Notes: generated from the letters alone by a model not told the origin. Positions 3,906 to 59,182 are shown, numbered from the stretch's first letter. The stretch is 64,000 nt of DNA from Candidatus Moraniibacteriota bacterium (GCA_037443825.1 JBBINP010000001.1:1430-65429), one strand, 5' to 3'. Numbers and translations: made by a program.

Positions 3906-6900
3906 ATGCTTTTACAACCGAAGACGCTTAAAGTCAGAGATTCTTTTGGCGCCGCATCTTCCCTTTCCAGGCGCAAATTTTTTAAAAAACGTTTAATAGT
4001 GTCTTTGCCGAATCTGATTGAAGCGCAAACCGGATCCTATCGCTGGTTTTTGGAAAAAGGACTCATGGAGTTGCTGGATGAAATTAATCCCATCGGCGAC
4101 TTTGCCGGCAAAGATCTGGAGCTTTCCATCTCTGATTATTATTTGGATGATCCCAAATATTCTGAAGCATTGGCGCGCGCCAAAAATGTTTCCTTTGAAG
4201 CCCCGCTTAGGGCCAAAGCGCGTCTCATTATCAAAAAAACCGGAGAAATAAAAGAACAGGAAATTTATTTAGGCGATTTTCCAATAATGACGGATCGCGG
4301 AACTTTCATTATTAATGGCGTGGAACGCGTGGTGGTTAGCCAACTTATTCGCAGTCCGGGGGTGTTTTTCACCATGGATTATCAAAAAGGCAAAAAACTT
4401 TTTGGAGCTAAAATCATTCCAAATCGCGGCGCTTGGCTGGAATTGGACACGGACTTGGATGGTGTGATTTCAGTTAAAATTGACAGGAAACGGAAAGTGC
4501 CCGCCACTTCTTTGTTGCGGGCGTTTGGTTATGGAACCGATGAAAAAATAAAAAACGCTTTCGCCGATGTTGACAAGGGGGAAATACAATACATTGAAGC
4601 GACACTGAATAAGGATCCGGCCAAAAATCAAGGCGATGGCTACAGGGAAGTTTACAAAAGAATACGTCCGGGAGATTTGGCGACTGAAGATAACGCCAAA
4701 CAAATGATAGATGCCATGTTTTTTAATTTTGAACGTTACGATTTCGGCAATGTGGGGCGCTATCGCCTTAACCAGCGATTGAATGTCAATCGCGATGATT
4801 CGGAAGAAAATCGGGTTTTGCTGGTGGATGATTTGATTCTTGTCATTAAGGAAATTATCGCTTTGAACAATAACCCTTTGGCGCAGGCGGATGATATTGA
4901 TCATCTGGGCAACAGGCGCGTCCGCTCCATGGGTGAATTGGTGCAAAATAAACTGCGCATCGGATTGGCTCGCTTGTCTCGCAATGTCAAAGACCGAATG
5001 AGTACTTGCGATGTTGCCACGGTATTGCCGGGACAATTGGTCAATTCGCGCCCGATCGCGGCGGCAATCAAAGAATTTTTTTCCAGTTCTCAACTCTCCC
5101 AGTTTATGGATCAGGTTAATCCATTGGCGGAACTGGAGCACAAGCGACGTTTTTCGGCTATGGGACCTGGCGGTCTCACGCGCGAACGCGCCGGTTTTGA
5201 AGTGCGCGACGTGCATCATTCCCACTACGGACGCATTTGTCCGGTGGAAACGCCGGAAGGTCCGAACATCGGCTTGGTCGGACATATGGCGAGTTACGCG
5301 CGCATAAACGACTATGGATTTTTAGAAACTCCTTATTTGAAAATAAGTCATTTTGTTGAAAATAAAAAAGACCGGCTGATCAACAGAATTTTAAATGAAA
5401 ATGTCGCCGGCATGAAAGCGGGAGAAAAAATCACTCCTGAAATCGCCGAGAAATTGACAACGGTTAAACAAAAAGAAATTCGCGTCAAGCCGTTTATTAT
5501 TCAAGAAGCGGAATATATGAATGCTACCGTGGAGGATCGCAATATTATCGCTCACGCGGGCATCAATACTGATGAAAATTACAATGTTACGGATGATTTT
5601 GTGGAAGCGCGGGTGAAAGGGCAGCCGGAAATTATTGAAGCGGAAAAATTGAATTATATTGATGTTTCCGCCAAACAATGCGTTTCCGTCGCGACCTCGC
5701 TCATTCCCTTTTTGGAACATGACGACGCCAATCGAGCATTGATGGGTTCTAATATGCAGCGCCAGGCGGTGCCTTGCATCGTTCCTCAGTCGCCGGTGGT
5801 GGGGACTGGCATTGAAGACAAGGCCGCGTCCGATTCGGGACAAGTCGTGCTGGCGGCGGAAGACGGAGAGGTTGTTGAAGTTGACGCCAGACATATCGTG
5901 ATTCGCGAAAAAGCCCCGATAGGATCCAAAAAAGATTATTATAACCGCGAATATCGCTTGCTTAATTTTGCCAAATCCAACGCTTTCACCAGCATGAGTC
6001 AGTCGCCACGAGTCAGTAAAGGACAGGTTGTCAAAAAAGGCGATCTGTTGGCGGACGGAGCGGCTACGGATAACGGAGAATTGGCTCTTGGCCAAAATGT
6101 TTTGGTGGCTTTTGCTCTTTGGGAGGGATTTAACTTTGAAGATGCCATCATAATTTCCGAGCGTCTTTTGCAGGATGACCGCTACAGTTCTATTCATATT
6201 GAAGATTTTTCCATTGACGTGCGCGACACCAAGCTCGGGCCGGAAGTGGTAACTCGCGATATTCCGAATATCGGAGAGGAGCGTCTCAGGAATCTTGACG
6301 AGACGGGTATTATTCACGTTGGCGCGGAAGTTTCTTCGGGCGACATTCTGGTTGGAAAAATAACTCCCAAGGGCGAAGGCGATCTCACTCCCGAAGAACG
6401 TCTTTTGCGCGCGATTTTTGGAGAAAAGTCCCGCGACGTAAAAGACAGCTCGCTCTATCTTCCGCACGGGGAACACGGCAAAGTGGTGGACATTAAAATT
6501 CTTTCCCGCGATCAGGGAGACAAGCTTTCAACCGGAGTCATTAAACAAATTCAAGTTTCAGTCGCCCAGCTTCGCAAAGTGGCCGTGGGCGATAAGTTGG
6601 CCGGGCGGCATGGCAACAAAGGAGTTATTTCCCGCATTGCGCCGGTGGAAGATATGCCGTATCTGGCCGACGGAATGCCGGTGGACGTTATTCTGAATCC
6701 GTTGGGAGTGGCCAGCCGTATGAATATCGGTCAAATTTTGGAAACTCATCTTGGTTGGGCGGCGAGCCGCCTTGGTTACACCGTCGCTTCTCCGGTGCTG
6801 GACGGAGTTAGTGAGGATGATATTAAACACGAATTGAAAAAGGCGGGTCTTCCAGACAGCGGAAAAGTCAAACTCATTGACGGTAAAACAGGGGAATATT

Positions 6901-7313
6901 TTAACGGAGAATCAACCGTCGGAATAATGTATATTATGAAACTCAATCATTTGGTGGATGACAAAATTCACATGCGTTCAATCGGTCCTTATTCTCTCAT
7001 CACTCAGCAACCATTGGGCGGCAAAGCCCAGTTTGGAGGACAACGCTTTGGAGAAATGGAAGTGTGGGCGCTGGAAGGGTACGGCGCGGCTCACACTCTT
7101 CAGGAAATGCTGACAATAAAATCAGACGATGTTTTGGGGCGATCTAAAGCTTATGAATCAATCATTAAGGGTGAAAAAATAAAGAGTCCCAATATTCCCG
7201 CTTCTTTTCATGTTTTGGTCAATGAACTGAAAGGTCTTTGTCTTAACATTGAGCTTGTTCAAAGCAAGATTCAAGATGAAAAAGAAGAGTCCAAAAAAGC
7301 GGATAAAAAATAA
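3906..7313 (+). CDS. rpoB: DNA-directed RNA polymerase subunit beta
   Basis: Unmistakable RpoB motifs throughout the 1135-1140 aa product, including PNLIEAQ, GTFIINGVERVVVSQL, and NMQRQAVP. The start was placed at ATG 3906 because a GAGGG motif lies 8 nt upstream; an alternative in-frame ATG is at 3891. Confidence 0.95.
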   Translation: MLLQPKTLKVRDSFGAASSLSRRKFFKKRLIVSLPNLIEAQTGSYRWFLEKGLMELLDEINPIGDFAGKDLELSISDYYLDDPKYSEALARAKNVSFEAPLRAKARLIIKKTGEIKEQEIYLGDFPIMTDRGTFIINGVERVVVSQLIRSPGVFFTMDYQKGKKLFGAKIIPNRGAWLELDTDLDGVISVKIDRKRKVPATSLLRAFGYGTDEKIKNAFADVDKGEIQYIEATLNKDPAKNQGDGYREVYKRIRPGDLATEDNAKQMIDAMFFNFERYDFGNVGRYRLNQRLNVNRDDSEENRVLLVDDLILVIKEIIALNNNPLAQADDIDHLGNRRVRSMGELVQNKLRIGLARLSRNVKDRMSTCDVATVLPGQLVNSRPIAAAIKEFFSSSQLSQFMDQVNPLAELEHKRRFSAMGPGGLTRERAGFEVRDVHHSHYGRICPVETPEGPNIGLVGHMASYARINDYGFLETPYLKISHFVENKKDRLINRILNENVAGMKAGEKITPEIAEKLTTVKQKEIRVKPFIIQEAEYMNATVEDRNIIAHAGINTDENYNVTDDFVEARVKGQPEIIEAEKLNYIDVSAKQCVSVATSLIPFLEHDDANRALMGSNMQRQAVPCIVPQSPVVGTGIEDKAASDSGQVVLAAEDGEVVEVDARHIVIREKAPIGSKKDYYNREYRLLNFAKSNAFTSMSQSPRVSKGQVVKKGDLLADGAATDNGELALGQNVLVAFALWEGFNFEDAIIISERLLQDDRYSSIHIEDFSIDVRDTKLGPEVVTRDIPNIGEERLRNLDETGIIHVGAEVSSGDILVGKITPKGEGDLTPEERLLRAIFGEKSRDVKDSSLYLPHGEHGKVVDIKILSRDQGDKLSTGVIKQIQVSVAQLRKVAVGDKLAGRHGNKGVISRIAPVEDMPYLADGMPVDVILNPLGVASRMNIGQILETHLGWAASRLGYTVASPVLDGVSEDDIKHELKKAGLPDSGKVKLIDGKTGEYFNGESTVGIMYIMKLNHLVDDKIHMRSIGPYSLITQQPLGGKAQFGGQRFGEMEVWALEGYGAAHTLQEMLTIKSDDVLGRSKAYESIIKGEKIKSPNIPASFHVLVNELKGLCLNIELVQSKIQDEKEESKKADKK

Positions 7314-10981: not shown

Positions 10982-11066
10982 TTCAAAATTGACTATTTGA
11001 TTGCGTCAAGATATTATAAAAAAAGACTTTCGGCGGACGCGACGCCTGCCGATTTTGTGTCCGTAT

Positions 11067-11137
11067 CGGAGCGTGGTGTAATGGCAGCACGAGTGCTTTG
11101 GGAGCATTTAGTCCGAGTTCGACTCTCGGCGCTCCGA
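11067..11137 (+). tRNA. tRNA-Pro (anticodon UGG), CCA not encoded
   Basis: Manually folded. Acceptor CGGAGCG pairs with CGCTCCG (with a G-U); D-stem GTGT/GCAC; anticodon stem AGTGC/GCATT with loop TTTGGGA (UGG, G37); T-arm CCGAG-TTCGACT-CTCGG; discriminator A. The ORF 10943..11167 overlapping it is spurious. Confidence 0.8.
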
Positions 11138-25389: not shown

Positions 25390-26874
25390 ATGAGCAAATA
25401 TAAAGCGACAATCGGGATAGAAGCGCACATTGAACTCAAAAACGAGTCCAAGATGTTTTGTTGCTGCCGAAACGGAATGGGACTGGAAAAAACGCCGAAC
25501 ATTCATATTTGTCCGGTTTGCACCGGACAACCCGGAGCTTTGCCGGTACCCAACCGAAAAGCTATTGAATTTGTGCAGCTGGCTGGCCTGGCTTTGAATT
25601 GCAATCTGGCAAAAAATTCCAAATTTGACCGCAAAAATTATTTTTATCCGGATATTCCAAAAGGATATCAAATTTCGCAGTATGATCAGCCGCTGTGCCT
25701 TGACGGTATGATGAAAATCCCGAGTTTCAAATCCCAGTCTTCTAAAAAAATAGGCATAATTAGAATACACCTGGAAGAAGACACCGGAAAACTGATGCAT
25801 GCCAAGAACGCGGATTATTCCCTGGTGGATTTTAACCGCGCCGGCGTGCCACTGATGGAATTGGTGACCGAGCCAGACATTGAATCGGGAGCGGAAGCGC
25901 GCCTTTTTTGCCAGAAACTTCAGCAGATTTGCCGGTATCTGGAAATTTCAGACGCCGACATGGAAAAAGGGCATATGCGTTGCGAAGTCAATTTATCGCT
26001 CTACAGGGATGGCGAGGATAAACTAAACGGCACAAAAGTGGAAGTGAAAAATATAAACTCTTTTAAATTCGTGGAAAAAGCCATTGATTATGAAATCAAG
26101 CGGCAGACTGAAATTTTGGAAAAAGGCGGAAAAATAACGCAGGAAACGCGCGGATACGACAGCCGGCGCGACATTACGGTTTCGCAGAGAATCAAGGAAT
26201 CGGCGCACGATTATCGCTATTTTCCGGAGCCGGATATTCCGCCGCTGGAATTTTCAGAGGAATATTTTGCCAAGCTGGCGCTGGATGTTCCGGAATTGCC
26301 GGATGCCAAAAAAGCAAGATTAAAAGAACAATACGGTTTGTCGGAAGAGAATATTGAAATTATAACAAGCGAGCGTGATTTGTCGGAATATTTTGAAAAC
26401 GTTATTTCCGAATTGGATGAAAAAATAAAAAGCGGGGAAATTGCGGCTGTTCGGGAAAAATGCGTGAAACTAATCGCTAATTATATGTCCAGCGAACTCA
26501 AAAAACATCTGGTTGAACGAAAACAAAAAATTTCTGAAATTAAGATTACTCCGGAAAATTATGCCGAGTTTATCGGAATTTTAGCCGATGGCAAAATCAA
26601 TTCCAGCGCGGCGCAATCTTTGCTGGCTGAAATGTACGGAACCGGCGGCAATCCGTCGCGCATTGTCAGGGAAAAAAACCTTTCGCAAATAAACGACGAG
26701 AGAGAGCTGGAAAAAATCATCCGGGAAATAATCGGCAAAAATCCCAAATCGGCGGAGGATTACAAACAAGGCAAGCAAAACGCTTTGCAATTCCTGGTGG
26801 GCCAGGCGATGGCGGCGACTAAAGGAAAAGCCAATCCGAAAATAGCGGCGGAGTTGTTAAAAAAGAATCTTTGA
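25390..26874 (+). CDS. gatB: Asp-tRNA(Asn)/Glu-tRNA(Gln) amidotransferase subunit B
   Basis: IGIEAHIELK, the zinc ligands CCC...CPVCTGQPG, and the GatB C-terminal YqeY-like domain. Confidence 0.9.
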   Translation: MSKYKATIGIEAHIELKNESKMFCCCRNGMGLEKTPNIHICPVCTGQPGALPVPNRKAIEFVQLAGLALNCNLAKNSKFDRKNYFYPDIPKGYQISQYDQPLCLDGMMKIPSFKSQSSKKIGIIRIHLEEDTGKLMHAKNADYSLVDFNRAGVPLMELVTEPDIESGAEARLFCQKLQQICRYLEISDADMEKGHMRCEVNLSLYRDGEDKLNGTKVEVKNINSFKFVEKAIDYEIKRQTEILEKGGKITQETRGYDSRRDITVSQRIKESAHDYRYFPEPDIPPLEFSEEYFAKLALDVPELPDAKKARLKEQYGLSEENIEIITSERDLSEYFENVISELDEKIKSGEIAAVREKCVKLIANYMSSELKKHLVERKQKISEIKITPENYAEFIGILADGKINSSAAQSLLAEMYGTGGNPSRIVREKNLSQINDERELEKIIREIIGKNPKSAEDYKQGKQNALQFLVGQAMAATKGKANPKIAAELLKKNL

Positions 26875-26942
26875 CTGTCTCTATTCTGATTCATCGGGCA
26901 TGAGCTGAAGTATTTGTTTAATTTGCATTGCTAAATAAGCTT

Positions 26943-26971
26943 TTGACTTTCTATTTTCTTTCTATTATGTT
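26943..26971 (+). promoter_or_regulatory. putative promoter of lexA (TTGACT-17-TATGTT)
   Basis: -35 TTGACT at 26943-26948 and a -10-like TATGTT at 26966-26971. A weak call. Confidence 0.3.
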
Positions 26972-26975
26972 ATTA

Positions 26976-27012
26976 GCATAGAGTTAAGATAAAATAAGGT
27001 CAAACTCTATGC
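26976..27012 (+). promoter_or_regulatory. perfect 10-bp inverted repeat GCATAGAGTT-N17-AACTCTATGC overlapping the lexA start codon
   Basis: Arms at 26976-26985 and 27003-27012; the ATG at 27009-27011 lies inside the right arm. Confidence 0.45.
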
Positions 27013-27521
27013 TTACAAAAAGACAAAAACAAGTTTTAGACTTTATATCCTTGTATCACAACAAGAAAGGATATGCGCCCTCTTTGGAGGAAATACGCAA
27101 AAAATTTAAACTCGCATCTGTTTCTACCGCCCATTTTCATGTTAAAAAGTTGCAAGATTTGGGGTTCATAGGAAAACAAGATAATAGATCAAGATCAATC
27201 GATATTTACGAAAAAGAAAAAATGGTTAATATTCCACTGTTTGGTTTAATTGCCGCTGGTCAACCTATTGAGGCGATACAAAACAAAGAGATGATCGCCG
27301 TGCCAAAAAGCAAAGTATCGCGCATAGGTGAATTTTATGCTCTGCGAGTAGTTGGTGACAGTGTGATTGATGAAAATATAAATGACGGCGATTTGGTTTT
27401 GGTAAAACAGCAAGCCACTGCCGAAAACGGACAAAAAGTTGTTGCGCTCGTGGATAACTATAAGGCAACATTAAAAAAATTTTATAAGGAAAAAATATAT
27501 AAGATTACAACCAGCGAATAA
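27009..27521 (+). CDS. lexA: LexA-like repressor (winged-helix DNA-binding domain + S24 peptidase), C-terminus disrupted by a +1 frameshift at an A6 run
   Basis: LexA N-domain (LTKRQKQVLDFI...APSLEEI) and S24 motifs (AAGQPIEA, GDSV, VALVDNYKATLKKFYKE). The annotated frame ends ...KEKIYKITTSE*. The +1 frame from 27475 encodes the expected LexA C-terminus YIRLQPANKTIEPIIIKRDRELAIQGIVIDVIRNE, as in B. subtilis LexA ([31 protein letters not shown]). Confidence 0.75.
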   Translation: MLTKRQKQVLDFISLYHNKKGYAPSLEEIRKKFKLASVSTAHFHVKKLQDLGFIGKQDNRSRSIDIYEKEKMVNIPLFGLIAAGQPIEAIQNKEMIAVPKSKVSRIGEFYALRVVGDSVIDENINDGDLVLVKQQATAENGQKVVALVDNYKATLKKFYKEKIYKITTSE

Positions 27522-27708
27522 AACTATTGAACCGATTATTATAAAAAGAGACAGAGAGCTAGCAATACAAGGCATTGTTATTGATGTAATAAGGAACGAG
27601 GAAAATTTACAGGCGGAAAAACTTTTCAAGAGCAAGGAAATAAAAAGAAATAAAACACTCCCATTAAATAAGATTATTTTAGGCGATGCCGCAGAAGAAT
27701 TAAAAAAG

Positions 27709-28533
27709 TTGCCAAATGAAAGTTGCGATGTAGTTGTTGTTGATCCGCCATATAATATAGGAAAAGATTTCGGAAACAATATAGATAAGCGCGAATTGAA
27801 AGAATATATTGTTTGGTGTAAAGAATGGATAAATGAATCAATTCGCGTAATGAAGCCAACGGGGACAATGTTTATTTATGGATTCAGTGAGATACTTGCT
27901 TATTTATCAGTAGAAATTCCTATCAATAAACGCTGGTTTATTTGGCATTACACGAACAAAAATGTCGCTTCGTTAAATTTTTGGCAAAGAAGCCATGAAT
28001 CAATTATCTGTGCGTGGAAAGATAAACCAATTTTTAATAAAGATGATGTCAGAGAGCCATACACCGAAGGTTTTTTGAATGGAGCCGCCGGAAAAATCAG
28101 AAAAGGAACTGCTGGAAGATTCAGCAGTAGCGGAAAAGAAACGGTTTATAACGCTCATGCCGGCGGGGCCTTGCCTCGCGATGTAATAAAAATACCAGCT
28201 TTGGCTGGCGGGGCGGGAATGAATGAAAGATGGTTTATTTGTAAAACTTGCAAAGATCAAGTTTTTGAACCAAGAGAATTAAAAAATCATGCTAAACATG
28301 ACATAGTCAAACACCCGACACAAAAACCTATTGAATTGTCGCGAAAATTAGTAATGTCCGCGATGCCGAAAAAAGACGGAGTTGTGTTGGTGCCATTTGT
28401 TGGCACTGGCTCTGATTGCGTGGCAGCTAAGGAGTTAGGCCAATTTTATGTAGGGTTTGAAATAAACCCCGATTATATTAAACTGGCTGAAAAATATTTG
28501 GAAAAAAGTAAATACATTTCAAAACTATTTTAA
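27709..28533 (+). CDS. beta-class N4-cytosine/N6-adenine DNA methyltransferase (DPPY motif IV first, FVGTGSD motif I last). Its reading frame is open upstream to 27475 and contiguous with the shifted LexA C-terminus
   Basis: VVVVDPPYN, the PTQKP motif, and the C-terminal FVGTGSDCVAAKELG. 27709 is a TTG. No ATG or GTG occurs in frame between the stop at 27472 and 27709, although the conserved N-terminal region (ILGDAAEELKKLPNES) lies upstream of the TTG. Confidence 0.75.
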   Translation: MPNESCDVVVVDPPYNIGKDFGNNIDKRELKEYIVWCKEWINESIRVMKPTGTMFIYGFSEILAYLSVEIPINKRWFIWHYTNKNVASLNFWQRSHESIICAWKDKPIFNKDDVREPYTEGFLNGAAGKIRKGTAGRFSSSGKETVYNAHAGGALPRDVIKIPALAGGAGMNERWFICKTCKDQVFEPRELKNHAKHDIVKHPTQKPIELSRKLVMSAMPKKDGVVLVPFVGTGSDCVAAKELGQFYVGFEINPDYIKLAEKYLEKSKYISKLF

Positions 28534-28743
28534 AGAATTATCTATTTCTTTTTTCTTTGACAAAAAAGTATTTGGGGTAAAAACTGAGTATTTATCTTTT
28601 GAGTTCCAGTTAAATGATTCTTTAAACTCAAGCCAGCCACTTTCGCGCGAGATTATTCTGTCCGCGATTGTTTCGTGGAATAGAAATATCTTTTTGTATT
28701 CATCGCTTTTTAGAAAATCTGTATTCATAATAAAGCGGATAAA

Positions 28744-31743
28744 TTACTCTCCCCACACGCCCGCTAAAATTTCCTCAATTCGCTTTTGGGCTTCGGATTT
28801 AAGCAGTCGCACGCCTTCCAGCGCCTGCATTTGCTTGTCTAGTTTCTCCACGATTTGGTGTTGGGTTTCGAGGGGTGGAATTAGAAAAAATATGTTTTTT
28901 AGATCTTTTTCATAGATCGCTGCAATATTTGTTGAGGCTTTTTTTATTCCATTTAGCTGATCGGAAACATAATCAGACAAAAAACAATAATTCAAATAAT
29001 CGGGCAATATTTCAGGTTTTGTTTTGATTCTCATCAACATGTGATTAAACAAAACCGGTCTTTCATTATTTTTCTTAAATATTGCCGTTTTTCCTACTAA
29101 TTCAAAGCTGTTACGTGTATTAAACAGAAGGTCATTATCGTCCAGTTTAAATTTGTCTATTTCTTCATTACTAGCTTCAATCGTAACAATACTTGCTTGC
29201 TCAATAAAACCTGACTGAATATTGTTCATTTTGATATATTCAACATCTCCCTTGTCTGTTTCCTCTTTTGTTTTTACTAAGCCAATTTGGGTTGATTCAA
29301 CAATATTTTTAAAAAACTTTTTTTCACCGATAAACGAATGACTACTAATTGAAAAATTATCTTCAATCCTCTCCGCTCCATCAATAATCTGCTTTTGCTT
29401 TTCGATTTTTTCCACGATTTCGTTTTGGACTTCAAGCGGCGGGAGGGGAATTTGTAATGCTAAAATTTCTTCGGTTTTATAGGTTTCGCGACCGGTTGAA
29501 TCTTCAATGCCCAGTTTCGCAAAAGCCGGTTTTAAAAAAATCAACAAATAGTCAGGATTGATTTTTGTATCGTCAATCCTAAACGGAACAAAAGTACCCG
29601 TTGAAACATAATTTTTATCGGAAATCGCAAACGAGCCATTCTGAGTATGCATTTTCCCAATAACAAGATCATCTTTTTGAATAAGAAGTCGTTTTTTGAC
29701 TTTTAGCTCTACCCCCAAACATTCGTTGTTTGTAGAAATAGTATTTGTTTTTGTTGAGATTGTTGGCTCGCAATATATTTTTTCATCTTCAATTTCAATT
29801 TTTCTTTCATCCGACAAATCAATCAAAAATGTGCTCAACGGTTCAAATGTAAATTGCTTTGTTTCTTTCAAAATCTCAAAAAGCTTGGCAAGTTTTTCAT
29901 CTCCTTCTAAAGCATTTTTCTCCAATTTACTCAGAAATTCCCTTGCAATATCCATTTGCAAAGCGTCTTTGGGATTAAAAGAAGCGAGGATTTGTAAAAC
30001 GGTTTTTGGTTCAGCTTTTTGTAATTCTTGATAGCGTTTATCAATTTTTGAGCCGTTTTTTATTTCCACACCTTTTAGTGTTTCTTGCCAATCCTTGATC
30101 TGCTCAATGCTTAAATTACTGCGATAGTTTTGCAAGTTAAAATGGTAGCTATGCGCTTTTTCAATGGCTTTGGCAACTTCGTTGTCAATTTGTCCTTCCA
30201 CGATATTGTCAAACTGCCACAATTTCTCGTCATACATTTCCTTGCTGATTTTTTTGCTTTCCAGTTTTTTATCTAATTGTTCAATAAGTTTTTCTCGTTT
30301 TTTAGCGTTTTTCTCTTTGGTTTTTTCGCTAACCTCTTTTTTTATTCGCTCGGCAATGCGCGGATCAAGGGTTTCGATCTGTTCTTTGGAAATGCAAAAA
30401 CTGTGTTTGGTGTCTTGTGGCTTTTTACTTTGCTTAACTTCTGCAAATAGTTTTAAGAGTTCAGGAATTTGACTGCTTTCAATCGGTTTTCTGTTGGTTC
30501 CCATACTAAAGCCGTCATTTTCTATTTTGTAATACCAAACAAAATCTGTCGGTTCACCTTTTTCAAAATATAAAATCGAAGTTTTGGCTCCTTGCCCGCT
30601 CTTGCTCACAAACACGCCTTGCGGAAGTGAGATAACTGCTCGCAGATTGGTTTCATTCAGAAGTATTTTACGAAGCGCGCAAGCGCTATTTTGCCCCCAA
30701 GTTAAAAAGCCCTCGGAAACAACTACGGCACAACGCCCCTTATCTTTGAGTAAATCAAACATAAGTTTTACGAACAAAATCGTCGTTTCCGATTCCTTGG
30801 AGTATTCTTCCCAAACATTTGGATATGCCGGCTGGTCTCTCTCAGCACCAAAAGGGGGATTGGCAATTACCACGCTTTTGCTTCCGCCGTCTCTGGACGG
30901 ATCGTACATTTTGAGACTGTCGCCTTGATCAATGTTGTGCGGATTAAGTCCGCGAATATACATATTCACCGCCGCCATTTTGCGAATCATTCCCGCATAT
31001 TCAATTCCACCAATTCCGGTGCGATAAAACATATTGGCGATATTTTCGGCAGGAAATTGCCTTGTTTGGCGCGCTTTTTCTATCACATAATCATACGCAT
31101 CAAAAAGAAAACCAGCCGTACCGCAAGCGGGATCAAAAATCGTGTCCGTAAAATCCGGGTCAACCATCTCAACCATCATTTGGCGAATATGGTCTGGCGT
31201 TCGGTAAAGTCCCAAATCTTTTGTTCCGCCGGTTTCAGAAAGAGCGGATTCAATCGCATCGCCGAGTAAATCAGTTTTTAAAATATATTTTTCGTCAATT
31301 TCGTTTACCATGCCGATTACTTCAGCGATCACTCCGCCTTTGACATTATTGGTAAAGTTGGAATTGGCAAAAACTTCTTCCATTAAAACCAACTGATCTT
31401 GCATTTTTTTGGGTAGATTTCCGATGACGACTGTTCGCGCTTTGGAAAGAATGGTGGAGTAAAACGGAAAAATATTTTTATTGAGTTCTGATAAAATTTG
31501 CTCACCGTTCAAAGAAAGCAAATGCGAAAAAAGCAGGCGATAATTTTCACCCGAGAAAAGCTCGCGCAGCGGCTTGAATGATTCGTCTTGTTTGAGTTTG
31601 GCTTCGAAAATGCGAAGTAAACAGAGCTCAATAATATATTCAACACGCATAACCGGCGTGCCGGCAGGACGAAGCTTATTGTGAAGCCTTTTTAGAATAT
31701 TATTTGTTTCGCTATCTGCGTAATGTGTTGTTGATCTGCCCAT
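28744..31743 (-). CDS. Type I restriction-modification HsdM-HsdS fusion (N6-adenine MTase domain + coiled-coil linker + two target-recognition domains)
   Basis: MTase motifs DPACGTAGFL (motif I) and VVIANPPFG (motif IV). A long charged coiled-coil spans about aa 430-640. Two TRD modules each end with the conserved HsdS helices (LPPLEVQNEIVEKIE and IPPLETQHQIVEKLD). Confidence 0.8.
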   Translation of the reverse strand: MGRSTTHYADSETNNILKRLHNKLRPAGTPVMRVEYIIELCLLRIFEAKLKQDESFKPLRELFSGENYRLLFSHLLSLNGEQILSELNKNIFPFYSTILSKARTVVIGNLPKKMQDQLVLMEEVFANSNFTNNVKGGVIAEVIGMVNEIDEKYILKTDLLGDAIESALSETGGTKDLGLYRTPDHIRQMMVEMVDPDFTDTIFDPACGTAGFLFDAYDYVIEKARQTRQFPAENIANMFYRTGIGGIEYAGMIRKMAAVNMYIRGLNPHNIDQGDSLKMYDPSRDGGSKSVVIANPPFGAERDQPAYPNVWEEYSKESETTILFVKLMFDLLKDKGRCAVVVSEGFLTWGQNSACALRKILLNETNLRAVISLPQGVFVSKSGQGAKTSILYFEKGEPTDFVWYYKIENDGFSMGTNRKPIESSQIPELLKLFAEVKQSKKPQDTKHSFCISKEQIETLDPRIAERIKKEVSEKTKEKNAKKREKLIEQLDKKLESKKISKEMYDEKLWQFDNIVEGQIDNEVAKAIEKAHSYHFNLQNYRSNLSIEQIKDWQETLKGVEIKNGSKIDKRYQELQKAEPKTVLQILASFNPKDALQMDIAREFLSKLEKNALEGDEKLAKLFEILKETKQFTFEPLSTFLIDLSDERKIEIEDEKIYCEPTISTKTNTISTNNECLGVELKVKKRLLIQKDDLVIGKMHTQNGSFAISDKNYVSTGTFVPFRIDDTKINPDYLLIFLKPAFAKLGIEDSTGRETYKTEEILALQIPLPPLEVQNEIVEKIEKQKQIIDGAERIEDNFSISSHSFIGEKKFFKNIVESTQIGLVKTKEETDKGDVEYIKMNNIQSGFIEQASIVTIEASNEEIDKFKLDDNDLLFNTRNSFELVGKTAIFKKNNERPVLFNHMLMRIKTKPEILPDYLNYCFLSDYVSDQLNGIKKASTNIAAIYEKDLKNIFFLIPPLETQHQIVEKLDKQMQALEGVRLLKSEAQKRIEEILAGVWGE

Positions 31744-31746
31744 AAC

Positions 31747-34113
31747 TTATACCTTAAATGTTGATTGTAATTCCTCATAAACTTGAGGAAAGCGGTTATC
31801 AAAAACCTGATTTACTTCTTCATAATCCGCGCCAATAATTCTTATAAACACCGGATTATTAAATACTTCTTGCGGTGAAATGCGTTTTTTCTCGGCTATG
31901 TTTGCCGAAACAATATCTTTCATGTCGCGCAAGATTTGAATTTGCTTGTCGTTGAAATTATATGTCTTGATGTATGAATCAAAACCTCTTTCAACTCGTT
32001 CTTTCGGAGTAGGAATTTTTTTGATTTTTAAAGCGTGTAAAAAAAAGTCCCAAATTGATCCCTGTTCAAAATCGTAGGCTTTTTGCAATTGTCCCTCATC
32101 AAGATAAACGTTTGGGTTGCGCGACCAATTTTTAATCTCGTCAATTTCTTGCTCGCTTGGCTCGTAATTTTCATTCGATTTAACTTTCTCTTTAATCTCT
32201 ACGATTTCCGGAGCTTTATCCTTAGTGATCTCTTCTTCAAAAATTTCTTTGGCTTTTTCAATAGGGATATTGTCTATTACTTTTATGCTGTCGCCGTGAA
32301 GGTAAACCCTCTGAATAAGGTGCGCGGGATCTGGATTGTCAATTATACCTGGATTTACCCCACCCCCTCCGCCTCCACTGCCTCCAGTTTGTATTCCTGT
32401 TACAACTTTTTTGTTTTCCTTTACAGTGCCCTTGCCGTTATCTTCCATTTTTTTGCACAGACCAACAAAATCCAAAACTTTAAAACTGAATTTTCCAGTT
32501 TTCGGATCAAGACGAGTTCCACGCCCGAGCATTTGAATATACTTTCCGACTGATTTTGTAAGATTGGCAAAAGCAATATAGCGAACGCAAGGAATATCAA
32601 CGCCGGTACTCATAATATCCACAGAAACAGCGATAAACGGCTTATGATTTTGATCTTTGAACCATTTTTTAAACGTTGCGTTAAGCTCGTCGTTTTCTGA
32701 AATAATAGCTTCTGCATAGCGTGGTGATAATTCATCCTCGCTTGTTTTAAATACTTGATTGATTGCTTTGACGAGTTGAACGGCATGAGCTTGGCTGACG
32801 CCAAACAAAATTACCTTCTCGCCATATTCTGTATTGGCTTTCAGTTCTTCTGCAATTCTTAAGCAATTATCCCAAGCGATAAATTTTCTATTTAGTTGTT
32901 CTAGTTTTATCTTTTTTTCTTGATCCAGCTTAACCAATTCTTCGGTTTTCAAATCAAAGTAGTGATCAAAATTTATGCCAACCTCTCGCGCTGTTTTGGT
33001 AAGTTCTGTTTCAATGGATAAAACTTGATAGGGAGCCAAAAAACCCTCATCAATGCCACGCGTAAGGTCAAATTGATAATCTGGCTCGCCGGTTTCACAG
33101 CCAAAAAGCCGATAAGTATCCAAAATCGCCAAATCTTCATCTGGAATTTCTTTACCTTTTTTAGCAACCGCCGTTCTTGGAGTGGCGGTCAATCCAACAC
33201 GAGGGCACAAGAAATGATCAAAAATCAATTTGCGATTAATATTGATAGATCGGTGACATTCATCAACAATAATCAAATCATAAAAACTGTTTGGAATGTT
33301 TTGATAAATATTCTCTAGCGTGTCAATAACGACGACATGAATTTGTGTGTTTTTGTATTGTTTGTAATTGCCCGAAGTAATACGGATAGCAGAGTATTCC
33401 TTACTAATAAGTGAAAACCCGTCGTTGATAACTTGCTCGGCAAGCATAACTCTATCAACCACAAACAAAACACGCTTTGCCATGTTGTATTCAAATAGTG
33501 CTTTTGTGAAAGCAGCCATTGTTCTTGTCTTTCCAAGACCAGTTGCCATATGAACAAGCATTTTTTGTTTACCCTCTTTGTATTTTTGAATAAGCGCTTG
33601 AATACATTCGGTTTGATAATAGGTTTCTTTACCACAGCTTGGATTTATTCCACCCGCAATACCTTTATCAATCGTGATTACTCGATCAAGATTTATTTTT
33701 CTTGCCTGCTCGATTTTAAGTTGCATTTCTTCAAGTGTCATCAAGCTGTTGACTTGGCGAAATTCTCCCGCTTCAAGCCCTTTCCATTCGGTGTCATAAA
33801 AAAGGGTTCGCTCCGGAGAACAAGCATACAAAAAACGAGGTTTTAAAACTGAAGCGTAAAGTGTACGAAGTTTTGTTAGCGCCTTTTTCTCGTCTTCAAA
33901 TTTATTCTCAAAAATAGCAACAATATTATGATTCAAATCCAATAGCGTAATGTCCGGTTTTACACTTTCTCGACCTTCAAATAGCTTTTGTTGTTCTGGT
34001 GTAAGTGAATATTCTTGTTGGTACAACAAAGTATCGCCGACTTTCCAGCCGAGTTTTTTTAGGTCTTCAATTATTTTCAGATCTGTGTCCGTTGCTTCGT
34101 TAATTCTAGGCAT
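31747..34113 (-). CDS. Type I restriction enzyme R subunit-like (N-terminal PD-(D/E)xK nuclease + SF2 helicase)
   Basis: Nuclease motif KPDITLL...IFENK. Helicase motifs HMATGLGKT (Walker A), IIVDECHRS (Walker B), LTATP and QMLGRGTR. A poly-Gly tract (GGSGGGGGG) is present. Confidence 0.8.
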   Translation of the reverse strand: MPRINEATDTDLKIIEDLKKLGWKVGDTLLYQQEYSLTPEQQKLFEGRESVKPDITLLDLNHNIVAIFENKFEDEKKALTKLRTLYASVLKPRFLYACSPERTLFYDTEWKGLEAGEFRQVNSLMTLEEMQLKIEQARKINLDRVITIDKGIAGGINPSCGKETYYQTECIQALIQKYKEGKQKMLVHMATGLGKTRTMAAFTKALFEYNMAKRVLFVVDRVMLAEQVINDGFSLISKEYSAIRITSGNYKQYKNTQIHVVVIDTLENIYQNIPNSFYDLIIVDECHRSININRKLIFDHFLCPRVGLTATPRTAVAKKGKEIPDEDLAILDTYRLFGCETGEPDYQFDLTRGIDEGFLAPYQVLSIETELTKTAREVGINFDHYFDLKTEELVKLDQEKKIKLEQLNRKFIAWDNCLRIAEELKANTEYGEKVILFGVSQAHAVQLVKAINQVFKTSEDELSPRYAEAIISENDELNATFKKWFKDQNHKPFIAVSVDIMSTGVDIPCVRYIAFANLTKSVGKYIQMLGRGTRLDPKTGKFSFKVLDFVGLCKKMEDNGKGTVKENKKVVTGIQTGGSGGGGGGVNPGIIDNPDPAHLIQRVYLHGDSIKVIDNIPIEKAKEIFEEEITKDKAPEIVEIKEKVKSNENYEPSEQEIDEIKNWSRNPNVYLDEGQLQKAYDFEQGSIWDFFLHALKIKKIPTPKERVERGFDSYIKTYNFNDKQIQILRDMKDIVSANIAEKKRISPQEVFNNPVFIRIIGADYEEVNQVFDNRFPQVYEELQSTFKV

Positions 34114-34115
34114 AA

Positions 34116-34343
34116 TTAAATCTTTATTAAATCATCAATGGTAACCCCTAAACCATCCGCAATTTTCGTTATTGTCTGCAAGGAGGGATTTTTAATAACA
34201 TCACTTTCTATCTTGGCTAAAGTCGTATATGGAATATCCGCCTTTTTAGCTAAAGCGTCTTGAGTAATCTCTTTCTTTTTTCTCCACGCTTTGATTTTTT
34301 CGCCGATGGATTTGTCCTTTTTATTCATTTGCTTTTCTTCCAT
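34116..34343 (-). CDS. XRE-family HTH transcriptional regulator (controller/C-protein candidate of the R-M operon)
   Basis: IKAWRKKKEITQDALAKKADIPYTTLAKIESD...LQTITKIADGLGVTIDDLIK. It sits first in the operon, 2 nt upstream of hsdR. Confidence 0.75.
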   Translation of the reverse strand: MEEKQMNKKDKSIGEKIKAWRKKKEITQDALAKKADIPYTTLAKIESDVIKNPSLQTITKIADGLGVTIDDLIKI

Positions 34344-34361
34344 AAAATGATAGTATTAATA

Positions 34362-34391
34362 TGATGGTGTATGCATATCATCAGTATTATA
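34362..34391 (-). promoter_or_regulatory. operator-like pseudo-palindrome (TGATGGTGTATGCATATCATCA, core TATGCATA) adjacent to a minus-strand TATAAT, upstream of the HTH gene
   Basis: Imperfect 22-bp palindrome at 34362-34383. The -10 TATAAT is the reverse complement of 34386-34391. The arrangement is reminiscent of C-box operators. Confidence 0.35.
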
Positions 34392-34562
34392 CTAACAAAT
34401 ATAATGAAAGCAATCAATTTTTCAACTTTGTTATTAAAAATAAGGGAAGTCCGCTTTTGGCCAGACCCGCAGTAGCGGGGCAAAGATAAAAAATTCCAAT
34501 TTGCGCCTAAAATAGGCTGGCGAGCCCGCGTAGCGGGCGAGCCAATGCTTTCATTTCCCAAC

Positions 34563-34652
34563 TGGCGGAGGGTACAGGATTTGAACCTGTGAGGGGATTT
34601 CTCCCCAACCGCATTTCGAGTGCGGCGCATTAAACCGCTCTGCCAACCCTCC
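34563..34652 (-). tRNA. tRNA-Ser (anticodon CGA), class II with long variable arm, CCA encoded
   Basis: Reverse complement reads GGAGGGT..., with anticodon stem CCGCA/TGCGG, loop CTCGAAA, variable arm TGGGGAGAAATCCCCTCAC, and T-arm AGGTTCAAATCCTGT, ending ACCCTCC-G-CCA. Confidence 0.8.
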
Positions 34653-58735: not shown

Positions 58736-58773
58736 GTCAGCGATTTTTAATGATTATGTTTTTTTGGCGCGTG

Positions 58774-59182
58774 TGGAGTTGATGGGAATCGCACCCATGT
58801 CCAAATTATTTTTAAAACGCTTTCTACAAGATTAGTCTGTTTATTGTTTCGGTTTTTCCGAAAGCAGTTGTTTGCCTTGAAACAAACAAAAAAACAAACA
58901 ACTTTCTTTGGGCATTGCTTCGCCTTCCGCCGCCAAAGAACCGCGGTTGGCTATTCTGATAGTTGACACCGGAAATTGTTTATCAGAAATCAACAATCCG
59001 ATGGCCTGGCTGTTAAATTAAGCCAAGGCGGGAGCGAAAGCCGGCGTCATTGCTCGCGCAAAGGCCGCTTTCACTTTTGAGTATAAGTTTGCACTTATAA
59101 TTTTTCGGGAAGTTTGCGACTTTACCGAAATAGTCGGCTTGCGAACGTTTTAAGGAACAATTTGTCGAAACTGAACAACCCC
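58774..59182 (-). ncRNA. ssrA: tmRNA (ssrA), ~409 nt, CCA not encoded
   Basis: Reverse complement starts GGGGUUGUUCAGUUUCGACAAAUUG (compare E. coli GGGGCUGAUUCUGGAUUCGACGGGAUUUG). The acceptor stem GGGGUUG/CAACUCC has a G3-U70 pair. The 3' end is GGAC-AUGGG-UGCGAUU-CCCAU-CAACUCC-A (compare E. coli GGAC-GCGGG-UUCAACU-CCCGC-CAGCUCC-A-CCA). A tag-region-like AAGUCGCAAAC is present. It lies directly downstream of smpB. Confidence 0.8.

Follow-up and report, generated by a model that had tools for sequence, protein, structure and literature searches.

A frameshifted lexA-methylase gene and the probable remains of its Type II cassette beside a Type I restriction-modification system at a tRNA-Ser(CGA) gene of a Moraniibacteriota bacterium

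In a stretch of 64,000 nucleotides from Candidatus Moraniibacteriota bacterium (GCA_037443825.1, JBBINP010000001.1:1430-65429), here called the window, a block of restriction-modification (R-M) genes lies between gatB and a tRNA-Ser(CGA) gene (Table 1). On the plus strand the block seems to hold a LexA-like repressor gene and a DNA methylase gene, and convergent with them, on the minus strand, stand a helix-turn-helix (HTH) regulator gene and the genes of a Type I R-M system. The question raised by this locus is what a LexA-like repressor and a second methylase are doing opposite a Type I system. The best explanation of the block as a whole, to which we give a probability of about 0.6, is that the region at 26.9-34.6 kb is a defence hotspot 3' of tRNA-Ser(CGA) that has held two generations of R-M cassettes. 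The first would have been a Type II system typical of the Candidate Phyla Radiation (CPR), with a lexA-methylase gene on the plus strand, a convergent gene for a TaqI-family restriction endonuclease (REase) and probably a C protein gene on the minus strand, and then the tRNA. The second, a Type I cassette with the gene order HTH-hsdR-hsdM~S-AlbA_2, would have recombined in from the tRNA side through an illegitimate joint, which fused AlbA_2 codon ~48 to REase codon ~209 and removed 90% of the REase gene together with the C gene. The methylase would then have been dispensable because its endonuclease was gone, and a recent deletion of two nucleotides would have split its gene. That the block combines one frameshifted fusion gene, an REase stub, overwriting by a Type I cassette and a horizontal origin is very probable.

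One frameshifted gene in place of two

The open reading frames (ORFs) that look like a LexA gene (27009-27521) and a methylase gene (27709-28533) are the halves of one gene broken by a deletion of two nucleotides, and not the two separate genes for which an earlier note on this DNA had taken them. The LexA ORF of 170 amino acids ends in ...KKFYKEKIYKITTSE, and Pfam finds in it only positions 1-86 of the 116 in Peptidase_S24. The methylase frame is open from 27475 and first encodes the C-terminal third that the S24 domain of the LexA ORF lacks, YIRLQPANKTIEPIII...IQGIVIDVIR; it reads YIRLQPANKTIEPIIIKRDRELAIQGIVIDVIR, which is the absent S24 end, and runs on through a linker into the N-terminal part conserved in the methylases, LPLNKIILGDAAEELKKLP..DPPYN. 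No ATG, GTG or TTG stands ahead of the TTG at 27709, and a start there would cut off the conserved N-terminal segment LPLNKIILGDA..ELKKL.

When the two frames are rejoined they give a protein of 507 amino acids with more than 120 matches of 505-510 amino acids, at 74-89% identity and 100% coverage, in Minisyncoccales, Nealson-, Jorgensen- and Kaiserbacteria and other Patescibacteria. All of these full-length matches carry LexA_DNA_bind, Peptidase_S24 and N6_N4_Mtase, and the order within the fusion is a LexA DNA-binding domain, an S24 peptidase, a linker of about 25 amino acids and a beta-class N6_N4 methylase. DNA alignment with four relatives (L001, L004, L006 and L008 in our numbering of loci) places the two missing nucleotides between 27495 and 27496 (from AAAAAAATTATATA to AAAAAATATATA). 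The frame is broken upstream of the catalytic methylase motif DPPY, of the AdoMet motif FVGTGS (FxGxG) and of a CxxC...HxxH insert, all of which are present in the window. This invariant CxxC-x12-HxxH (28240-28310, CKTCKDQVFEPRELKNHAKHD) stands just before HPTQKP in all 22 aligned relatives and is possibly a zinc-binding insert. An AlphaFold2 model of the fusion made with the 22-sequence alignment was unusable (mean predicted local distance difference test score 46).

The same split is found in a contig of a metagenome-assembled genome (MAG; L009, GCA_964511735.1, CAZEGU010000001.1) and in a Logan assembly (L010, SRR11582139). The calling of two ORFs in the MAG contig would fit a free-standing LexA-like repressor next to a separate beta-class methylase, orphan or SOS-controlled, both functional and beside an unrelated Type I system, and a truly split lexA-methylase operon does exist in another locus (L180). 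Such an arrangement is very improbable here, because the 170-amino acid ORF lacks the last third of a fold that is encoded in the methylase frame, because the first start of that frame would drop a conserved segment and because the relatives are uninterrupted and differ by exactly two nucleotides at the break. It is less probable still that the frameshift is programmed or phase-variable and switches between fused and split forms. The break does lie in an A-rich tract (A6-TATATA), but the shift would have to be +1/-2 where -1 is usual, the tract with its 6-7 A is short, and the four aligned relatives and the more than 120 related proteins are all in frame.

Apart from the break the gene is well preserved. 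Among 210 columns without variation in 22 relatives the window departs at two, one of them a change from M to V beside the catalytic Ser (GDSV), while the relatives themselves range from 0 to 6; AAG and TLKK are kept around the scissile and Lys sites. Because the gene has otherwise hardly decayed, a recent break is likelier than an error of sequencing or assembly. If it were an artefact, or a minority allele, an intact orphan LexA-methylase would persist without an endonuclease, and fusions without an adjacent REase are indeed found (L025-L028, L032). Two-base deletions are not typical homopolymer errors, the deletion is present in two assemblies made with different software, and both the -10 hexamer (TATGTT) and the upstream TGTGGATAA box are also degraded compared with close relatives, which makes an intact gene quite unlikely.

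The endonuclease stub and the Type I cassette

Flanks of 4-10 kb were inspected around each homologue. After the fusion gene, every close relative examined has a convergent gene for a protein of 229 amino acids, the two genes overlapping at their 3' ends, and beyond this there is often an HTH_3 gene of 72-106 amino acids, encoding a C protein. The 229-amino acid protein of L004 matches Pfam RE_TaqI (E=5.9e-30), while no sequence relative of it was found in PDB. The pairing of fusion and REase is present in most CPR loci (tBLASTn, 90 loci). The pair also exists with a LexA-free methylase, in Woesearchaeota, Alphaproteobacteria and other groups, which makes this a bona fide R-M family. The fusion occurs in about 36 GTDB species representatives, nearly all labelled CPR and a few labelled otherwise; the addition of LexA is confined almost entirely to genomes labelled CPR.

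Type II systems under the control of a C protein are known from the PvuII and Esp1396I type, and the TaqI system recognises TCGA. The cassettes of the relatives are similar in having, in many cases, an HTH_3 C protein and a palindromic C-box (ATAACCTATT-N14-AATAGGATAT) before the REase gene, in RE_TaqI and in the depletion of TCGA. They differ in that the fusion methylase is of the beta class (DPPY) whereas M.TaqI is of the gamma class, and in that the family has a dual control, with the C protein for R and LexA for M; the REase is served by a separate C protein and C-box and lacks the LexA repeat, and the window has lost R and C. Of all 4-mer palindromes TCGA shows the strongest depletion, both in the window, with 37 sites observed against 165 expected (observed/expected, O/E, 0.22), and in the pooled CPR loci (O/E 0.56). 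The older Type II system most likely recognised TCGA, to judge from these counts and the family of the REase.

No REase gene is left in the window. In its place is an ORF of 67 amino acids (28525-28728, minus strand), passed over in the earlier note, which overlaps the 3' end of the methylase as the REase does in the relatives and which carries the junction of two R-M cassettes. Its last 21 residues are identical at 17 of 21 positions (81%) to the C-terminus of the 229-amino acid REase of L004, and its first 48 residues at 44 of 48 (92%) to the N-terminus of a 346-amino acid SLFN_AlbA_2 protein of L091. In relatives (L091, L092) this AlbA_2 gene stands after hsdM~S and closes the same Type I cassette. 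DNA alignment puts the switch from AlbA_2 to REase sequence at 28585-28590; 21 C-terminal codons of the REase remain and the C gene is gone. The 5.75-kb Type I cassette contains 9 of the 37 TCGA sites (binomial P=0.005), an excess that fits donor DNA not under TCGA restriction.

Of the roles that had been suggested for the second methylase, that it belongs to a lost Type II partner is supported by this TaqI-family stub at its 3' end. Protection against the Type I system is not, as the methylase is of a different class and has a different partner. The convergent layout turns out to be a scar and not a designed architecture, left where the Type I cassette took the place of the REase and C genes that had stood convergent in the older system.

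The Type I part was described correctly as tRNA-Ser(CGA) with HTH, HsdR and HsdM-HsdS genes on its 3' side on the minus strand, which ARAGORN, Pfam, PADLOC and PDB comparisons confirm. The genes follow each other closely, with two nucleotides between the HTH gene and hsdR as had been claimed, though the supposed 4-nucleotide overlap is in fact a gap of three nucleotides (31744-31746) between hsdR and hsdM~S. HsdR has the domains ResIII, Helicase_C and EcoEI_R_C, matches the HsdR structure 3h1t (E=4.5e-36) and has homologues of 792 amino acids in L091 and L092. The hsdM~S product gives Pfam matches to N6_Mtase (1.2e-42) and two stretches of Methylase_S, has the motif NPPF, is called MTase_I and Specificity_I by PADLOC, with a IIG match as well, and matches EcoKI and StySJI HsdM and EcoKI HsdS in PDB. 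A 54-nucleotide repeat, 564 nucleotides apart, is found within its S-encoding part. More than 120 full-length homologues of about 1000 amino acids (61-92% identity) are known from CPR and other phyla, so the fused M~S is not a new sequence family and the Type I part is ordinary. It resembles Type I systems in the HsdR motor with EcoEI_R_C, in a gamma-class HsdM and in an S subunit with two target recognition domains (TRDs). The window protein, like these homologues, is one chain (999 amino acids) and not separate M and S subunits; because M and S are fused and R is separate, the classical M2S1 stoichiometry cannot apply as such. The single M~S chain resembles the C-terminal two-thirds of the AloI and CjeI enzymes, whose stoichiometry is called unresolved in a review of Type I systems (PMC3874165).

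The HTH gene (Pfam HTH_3, 1.3e-15; PADLOC HTH_VI, CapH and Control_protein) also precedes hsdR in L091. It was considered as the surviving C gene of the Type II system and rejected: its similarity to the Type II C protein is weak (38% identity over 32 amino acids), and it is therefore assigned to the Type I cassette. L092 has no HTH gene and carries a Bro-N gene (6172-6999) between hsdR and hsdM~S. The Type I system of the window looks intact and is presumably active, since all three genes are full length compared with their homologues.

Table 1. Features of the R-M block and its borders, in window coordinates
Feature	Position	Strand	Remarks
gatB	25390-26874	+	Upstream border of the R-M block
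lexA-methylase promoter	26943..26971	+	-35 TTGACT, 17-nt spacer, -10 TATGTT; consensus scan
Putative LexA operator, TTCTAT-N5-TTCTAT, 11-bp period, inside the promoter spacer	26949..26965	+	
lexA-methyltransferase fusion gene, frameshifted	27009..28533	+	Frame 0: 27009-27494; frame +1: 27496-28533
Site of the 2-nt deletion that splits the fusion	27490..27501	+	A6-TATATA in the window, A7-TTATATA in relatives
TaqI-family REase remnant, last 21 codons and stop	28525..28590	-	Overlaps methylase 3' end by 9 nt
AlbA_2/Schlafen-like 5' stub, ~46-48 codons	28591..28728	-	In frame with the REase remnant; joint within 28585-28590
hsdM~S, 999 aa, full length	28744..31743	-	Gamma-class N6-adenine methylase (NPPF) and two-TRD specificity subunit
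hsdR, 788 aa, full length	31747..34113	-	Motor domains and EcoEI_R_C
HTH_3 (Xre/C-protein-like) regulator, 75 aa, first gene of the Type I operon	34116..34343	-	
Promoter-like site of the HTH-hsdR-hsdM~S operon, TTGAAA-16-TATATT	34398..34425	-	Consensus 10/12; pattern match only
tRNA-Ser(CGA), 3' end toward the R-M block	34563..34652	-	ARAGORN

Horizontal origin and the tRNA flank

The block has the location of a genomic island: it lies directly 3' of a tRNA, has a foreign composition (G+C 0.33-0.40 over 27-35 kb against about 0.41-0.45 in both flanks) and is absent from relatives. The best non-self match of GatB has 74% identity and most have 68-72%, in Moranbacteria-like organisms, whereas the cassette proteins reach 89% (LexA-methylase) and 92% (HsdM~S) elsewhere. 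The two nearest gatB relatives (~72% identical) keep the order NusG-L11-L1-SHMT-...-Thy1-gatB and continue with miaA/miaB; neither R-M genes nor tRNA-Ser were found after gatB in these two. The difference in identity and the loss of synteny after gatB bear out the suggestion that the R-M DNA between gatB and tRNA-Ser came by horizontal transfer. The comparison that had been proposed in its support, whether gatB adjoins tRNA-Ser when the island is absent, gave a different picture, as the two are not adjacent in the available relatives and no empty site was seen there.

The genes that flank the Type II cassette vary between genomes. Of 25 loci whose flanks are long enough, 11 have a tRNA gene within 450 nucleotides of the R/C end, in each case with the 3' end turned toward the cassette, and the linked tRNAs include Ser, Asp, Ala, Lys, Leu and Glu; by a rough binomial estimate this linkage is many orders of magnitude beyond chance. 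In L004 and L008 it is tRNA-Ser(CGA) that flanks the intact Type II cassette. The Type I cassette adjoins a tRNA in all three cases examined, namely the window, L091 (tRNA-Lys) and L092 (tRNA-Ser(CGA)). The statement that both islands of the window abut tRNA 3' ends thus holds, and the position recurs in related cassettes of both types.

The other island (11066-14364) begins with tRNA-Pro(TGG) at 11066-11141 on the plus strand. It is followed after 117 nucleotides by an EcoRI-family adenine methylase gene (11258-12340; Pfam E=1.8e-123), a Bro-N gene (12342-13193) and a gene for a Type IV-like endonuclease with GmrSD_N and HNH (13195-14364). No EcoRI-like REase was seen in this island, and the O/E of GAATTC is 0.60. 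A few kb past tRNA-Ser, at about 37.5-44.5 kb (L009:1-4833), the window has type IV secretion and conjugation genes of the CPR type (TraG-like ATPase, TraC-like, PrgI and a type IV secretion system pilin).

The tRNA linkage, in one orientation, and the low G+C might be taken for a decayed island that once carried an integrase and was inserted site-specifically into the 3' end of tRNA-Ser. As the earlier note had stated, there is no integrase among the ORFs of the block, and none was found in about 40 loci. An attachment-like copy of the tRNA 3' end was looked for at the distal border in the window and in 10 related loci and was absent from all of them, the cassettes adjoin many different tRNAs, and the only border that can be resolved is an illegitimate in-frame joint between two genes and not an attachment site. 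Integration of the integrase type, which the earlier note had favoured, is thus unlikely. Exchange without an integrase, in which the conserved tRNA serves as homology anchor, is conceivable, though we consider it doubtful.

Two further features of the window are unrelated to the block. An ORF at 14918-15784 joins an Ogt-type DNA_binding_1 domain to Sua5/YciO/YrdC, which is an unusual pairing, and a transfer-messenger RNA gene at 58773-59182 (minus strand) encodes the long tag peptide ANLYSKVKAAFARAMTPAFAPALA.

The LexA module, its operator and its spread

The LexA part of the fusion aligns end to end with the solved LexA structures 3k2z (E=3e-32) and 1jhh. LexA_DNA_bind and Peptidase_S24 are found by Pfam in the LexA ORF of the window, where S24 is split by the frameshift, and in all of 49 diverse fusions. 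A84-G85, S122 and K160 are invariant across these 49, for all that the mean column identity is 14%, and also in the alignment of 22 relatives. An Ala-Gly bond and a Ser-Lys dyad are the defining features of self-cleaving S24 repressors (PMC8565304).

The promoter of the fusion gene contains a block, TTGACTTTCTATTTTCTTTCTATTATACT, that is conserved in relatives. The conserved form is TTGAC-TTTCTAT-TTTC-TTTCTAT-TATACT, in which a hexamer is repeated at a period of 11 bp in the spacer; the -10 hexamer that reads TATGTT in the window is TATACT or TATAAT in relatives. Among 34 related promoters 30 carry such a direct repeat. TTCTAT-N5-TTCTAT has a single perfect copy in the window, matches with two mismatches occur there at chance level, and no further operator copies that would point to a regulon were found in the window, nor was recA. 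Within 514 kb of CPR loci the direct-repeat motif is confined to lexA-methylase promoters. Half-site and recognition helix vary together: HFH (STAHFH) is found with TTCTAT or TTCTAC, HQH or HEH with TTCGGT and SHY or DFY with TTCTAG. Because the operator sits in the promoter spacer, occurs at its own promoter only and covaries with the helix, the LexA module probably represses its own promoter through the direct repeat.

Upstream of the -35, at a distance of 10-25 nucleotides and in either orientation, relatives have a perfect 9-mer resembling a DnaA box, TGTGGATAA (complement of TTATCCACA). The element (TGTGGATAAC) is found at about 30 related loci, for example at L004:9917-9925, and 19 of the 26 perfect copies in 257 kb are at the promoter position. 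The perfect 9-mer is absent at 26925-26935 in the window.

Some operators read GTTC-N7-GTTC, as GTTCGGT-N4-GTTCGGT (L030, L031). This is the geometry of the alphaproteobacterial LexA box, a direct repeat GTTC-N7-GTTC (PMC8565304). The resemblance, the complete LexA part that by sequence is competent for cleavage and the name "transcriptional repressor LexA" given to these proteins at NCBI would all suit a fusion that is the master SOS repressor of the cell, so that the R-M system is attached to an essential regulator and its loss is costly, a strategy of addiction. Like the LexA repressors of Escherichia coli and Thermotoga, the fusion has similarity over the full length, the S24 residues and an operator that overlaps its own promoter. 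Unlike them, it forms one chain with a DNA methyltransferase, moves as part of an R-M cassette and has its own promoter as the only target seen in the 514 kb of CPR loci. The surroundings of the cassette differ from genome to genome, its conservation between lineages far exceeds that of the housekeeping protein GatB, and the organism tolerates a frameshift in the fusion gene. Moreover, most stand-alone LexAs form a clade of their own in a rough neighbour-joining tree (two of its members are from non-CPR sources, one named Gemmatimonadales). A role as master repressor is on these grounds rather unlikely.

What autorepression might serve can be outlined. The LexA module would bind the 11-bp-spaced direct repeat, probably as a dimer through S24, and hold methylase synthesis at a set level. 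DNA breaks, including cuts by the system's own endonuclease at under-methylated sites, would generate RecA filaments and these would trigger self-cleavage at Ala-Gly, so that the DNA-binding domain is removed and the promoter derepressed, while the fragment of S24 and methylase is left free to methylate. By this feedback loop, protection would increase at the onset of self-restriction. Such a damage-triggered loop is a tentative proposal, to which we give somewhat less than an even chance.

Fusions of LexA to methylases are not restricted to the N6_N4 class. A profile-free scan of 1.84 billion representatives rendered many proteins of 300-890 amino acids with an N-terminal LexA. The C-terminal parts of 49 selected ones were N6_N4 in 30, Eco57I or N6_Mtase/TaqI_C of the gamma class in about 7, D12/Dam-class (alpha) in 5 and C5 DNA_methylase in 3, so that one promoter and LexA module is shared by beta, alpha, gamma and C5 methylases; fusions to D12, gamma-class or C5 methylases include P0177, P0187, P0190, P0193, P0198, P0229, P0247, P0253 and P0259. 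A gamma-class example from Nealsonbacteria (L093) has the promoter TGTGAATAAC-TTTCGGT-TTTC-TTTCGGT-...TATAAT and a convergent unknown gene of 302 amino acids, within a defence island, and a C5 example has a convergent overlapping gene too. In the split form (L180:3728-6066) a lexA gene of 198 amino acids is followed after 12 nucleotides by an N6_N4 methylase gene of 289 amino acids and a convergent unknown gene of 277 amino acids; the promoter is TTGACT/TTCGAT-N5-TTCTAT/TATACT, and AAKK stands in place of Ala-Gly. In three loci (L038 at 4001-5170, 389 amino acids; L041; L043) the LexA DNA-binding domain alone, about 75 amino acids, is fused and S24 is missing.

In the neighbour-joining tree the LexA domains of different methylase classes interleave. 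Several LexAs of about 200 amino acids fall among the fusions; these are likely fragments, because they come from very short contigs and one is labelled partial, its cluster holding a member of 624 amino acids. A phage-repressor origin of the fusion was considered and is disfavoured, because a scan of IMG/VR found no fusion on viral contigs and unfused methylase homologues only. The closest of these (L100-L179) have 50-59% identity and no LexA, and most of them lie on MAG contigs of giant viruses.

Type II methyltransferases with an autoregulatory N-terminal HTH domain are known, such as M.SsoII, M.EcoRII and M.MspI. The fusions are similar to this type in the N-terminal DNA-binding domain, the operator in the methylase promoter and the adjacent REase, and L038 has exactly this architecture; they differ in having a complete LexA with S24, an operator in the form of an 11-bp direct repeat and four classes of methylase. 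Regulators that make defence responsive to damage are known as well, for instance CapH/CapP of CBASS (cyclic oligonucleotide-based antiphage signalling system) and those of the WYL/BrxR type. They share the concept of expression coupled to damage through a cleavable or ligand-sensing repressor, but belong to other protein families, and the repressor is not fused to the effector enzyme. A complete and apparently cleavage-competent LexA at the N-terminus of all methylase classes appears to be new, while the copy in the window is probably dead. No description of LexA-methylase fusions was found in the literature open to full-text search; the work of Sanchez-Osuna, Barbe and Erill on the SOS network of Patescibacteria (2017, Environ Microbiol 19:3465) may bear on this.

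Several points weigh against the account given here. The MAG and the Logan assembly that have the frameshift may derive from the same reads, and the MAG origin limits certainty on it. That the REase was lost before the frameshift is inferred from how little the gene has decayed. The TCGA specificity is read from Pfam family membership and k-mer depletion, and depletion can have other causes. Alignments of tRNA-Ser and spacer from the window, L092, L004 and L008 revealed no donor-like tract and neither support nor exclude an anchor. As for the LexA module, the counts behind the covariation of half-site and helix are not phylogenetically independent, a wider regulon or a separate SOS lexA could lie beyond the inspected flanks, and DNA binding, cleavage, dependence on RecA and methylation by the fusion are computational predictions. 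Finally, some family members have no S24 (L038) or no Ala-Gly bond (L180), and the R-M system can therefore do without cleavage.

R-M systems are regarded as the principal defence of CPR bacteria, whose genomes are very small. A portable LexA module, equipped with a direct-repeat operator and the element resembling a DnaA box, might make CPR methylases of every class responsive to damage and act as a brake on autoimmunity, with the cassettes exchanged by preference at tRNA 3' flanks, perhaps by homology-anchored illegitimate recombination in cells with natural competence; this wider view is possible, but we would sooner bet against it than for it. The locus itself records the overwriting of one defence cassette by another at a tRNA-flank hotspot, with a datable scar and a lingering depletion of TCGA. 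It also has a consequence for annotation: the fusions go under the name "LexA" or "adenine methyltransferase", and a frameshifted copy such as this one appears as two genes, which is misleading. The family, in which helix and half-site change together, is a natural series for the evolution of LexA specificity. The balance between endonuclease and methylase is a classic problem of R-M systems, and a methylase that carries LexA suggests that self-inflicted damage may be sensed and answered with more protection.

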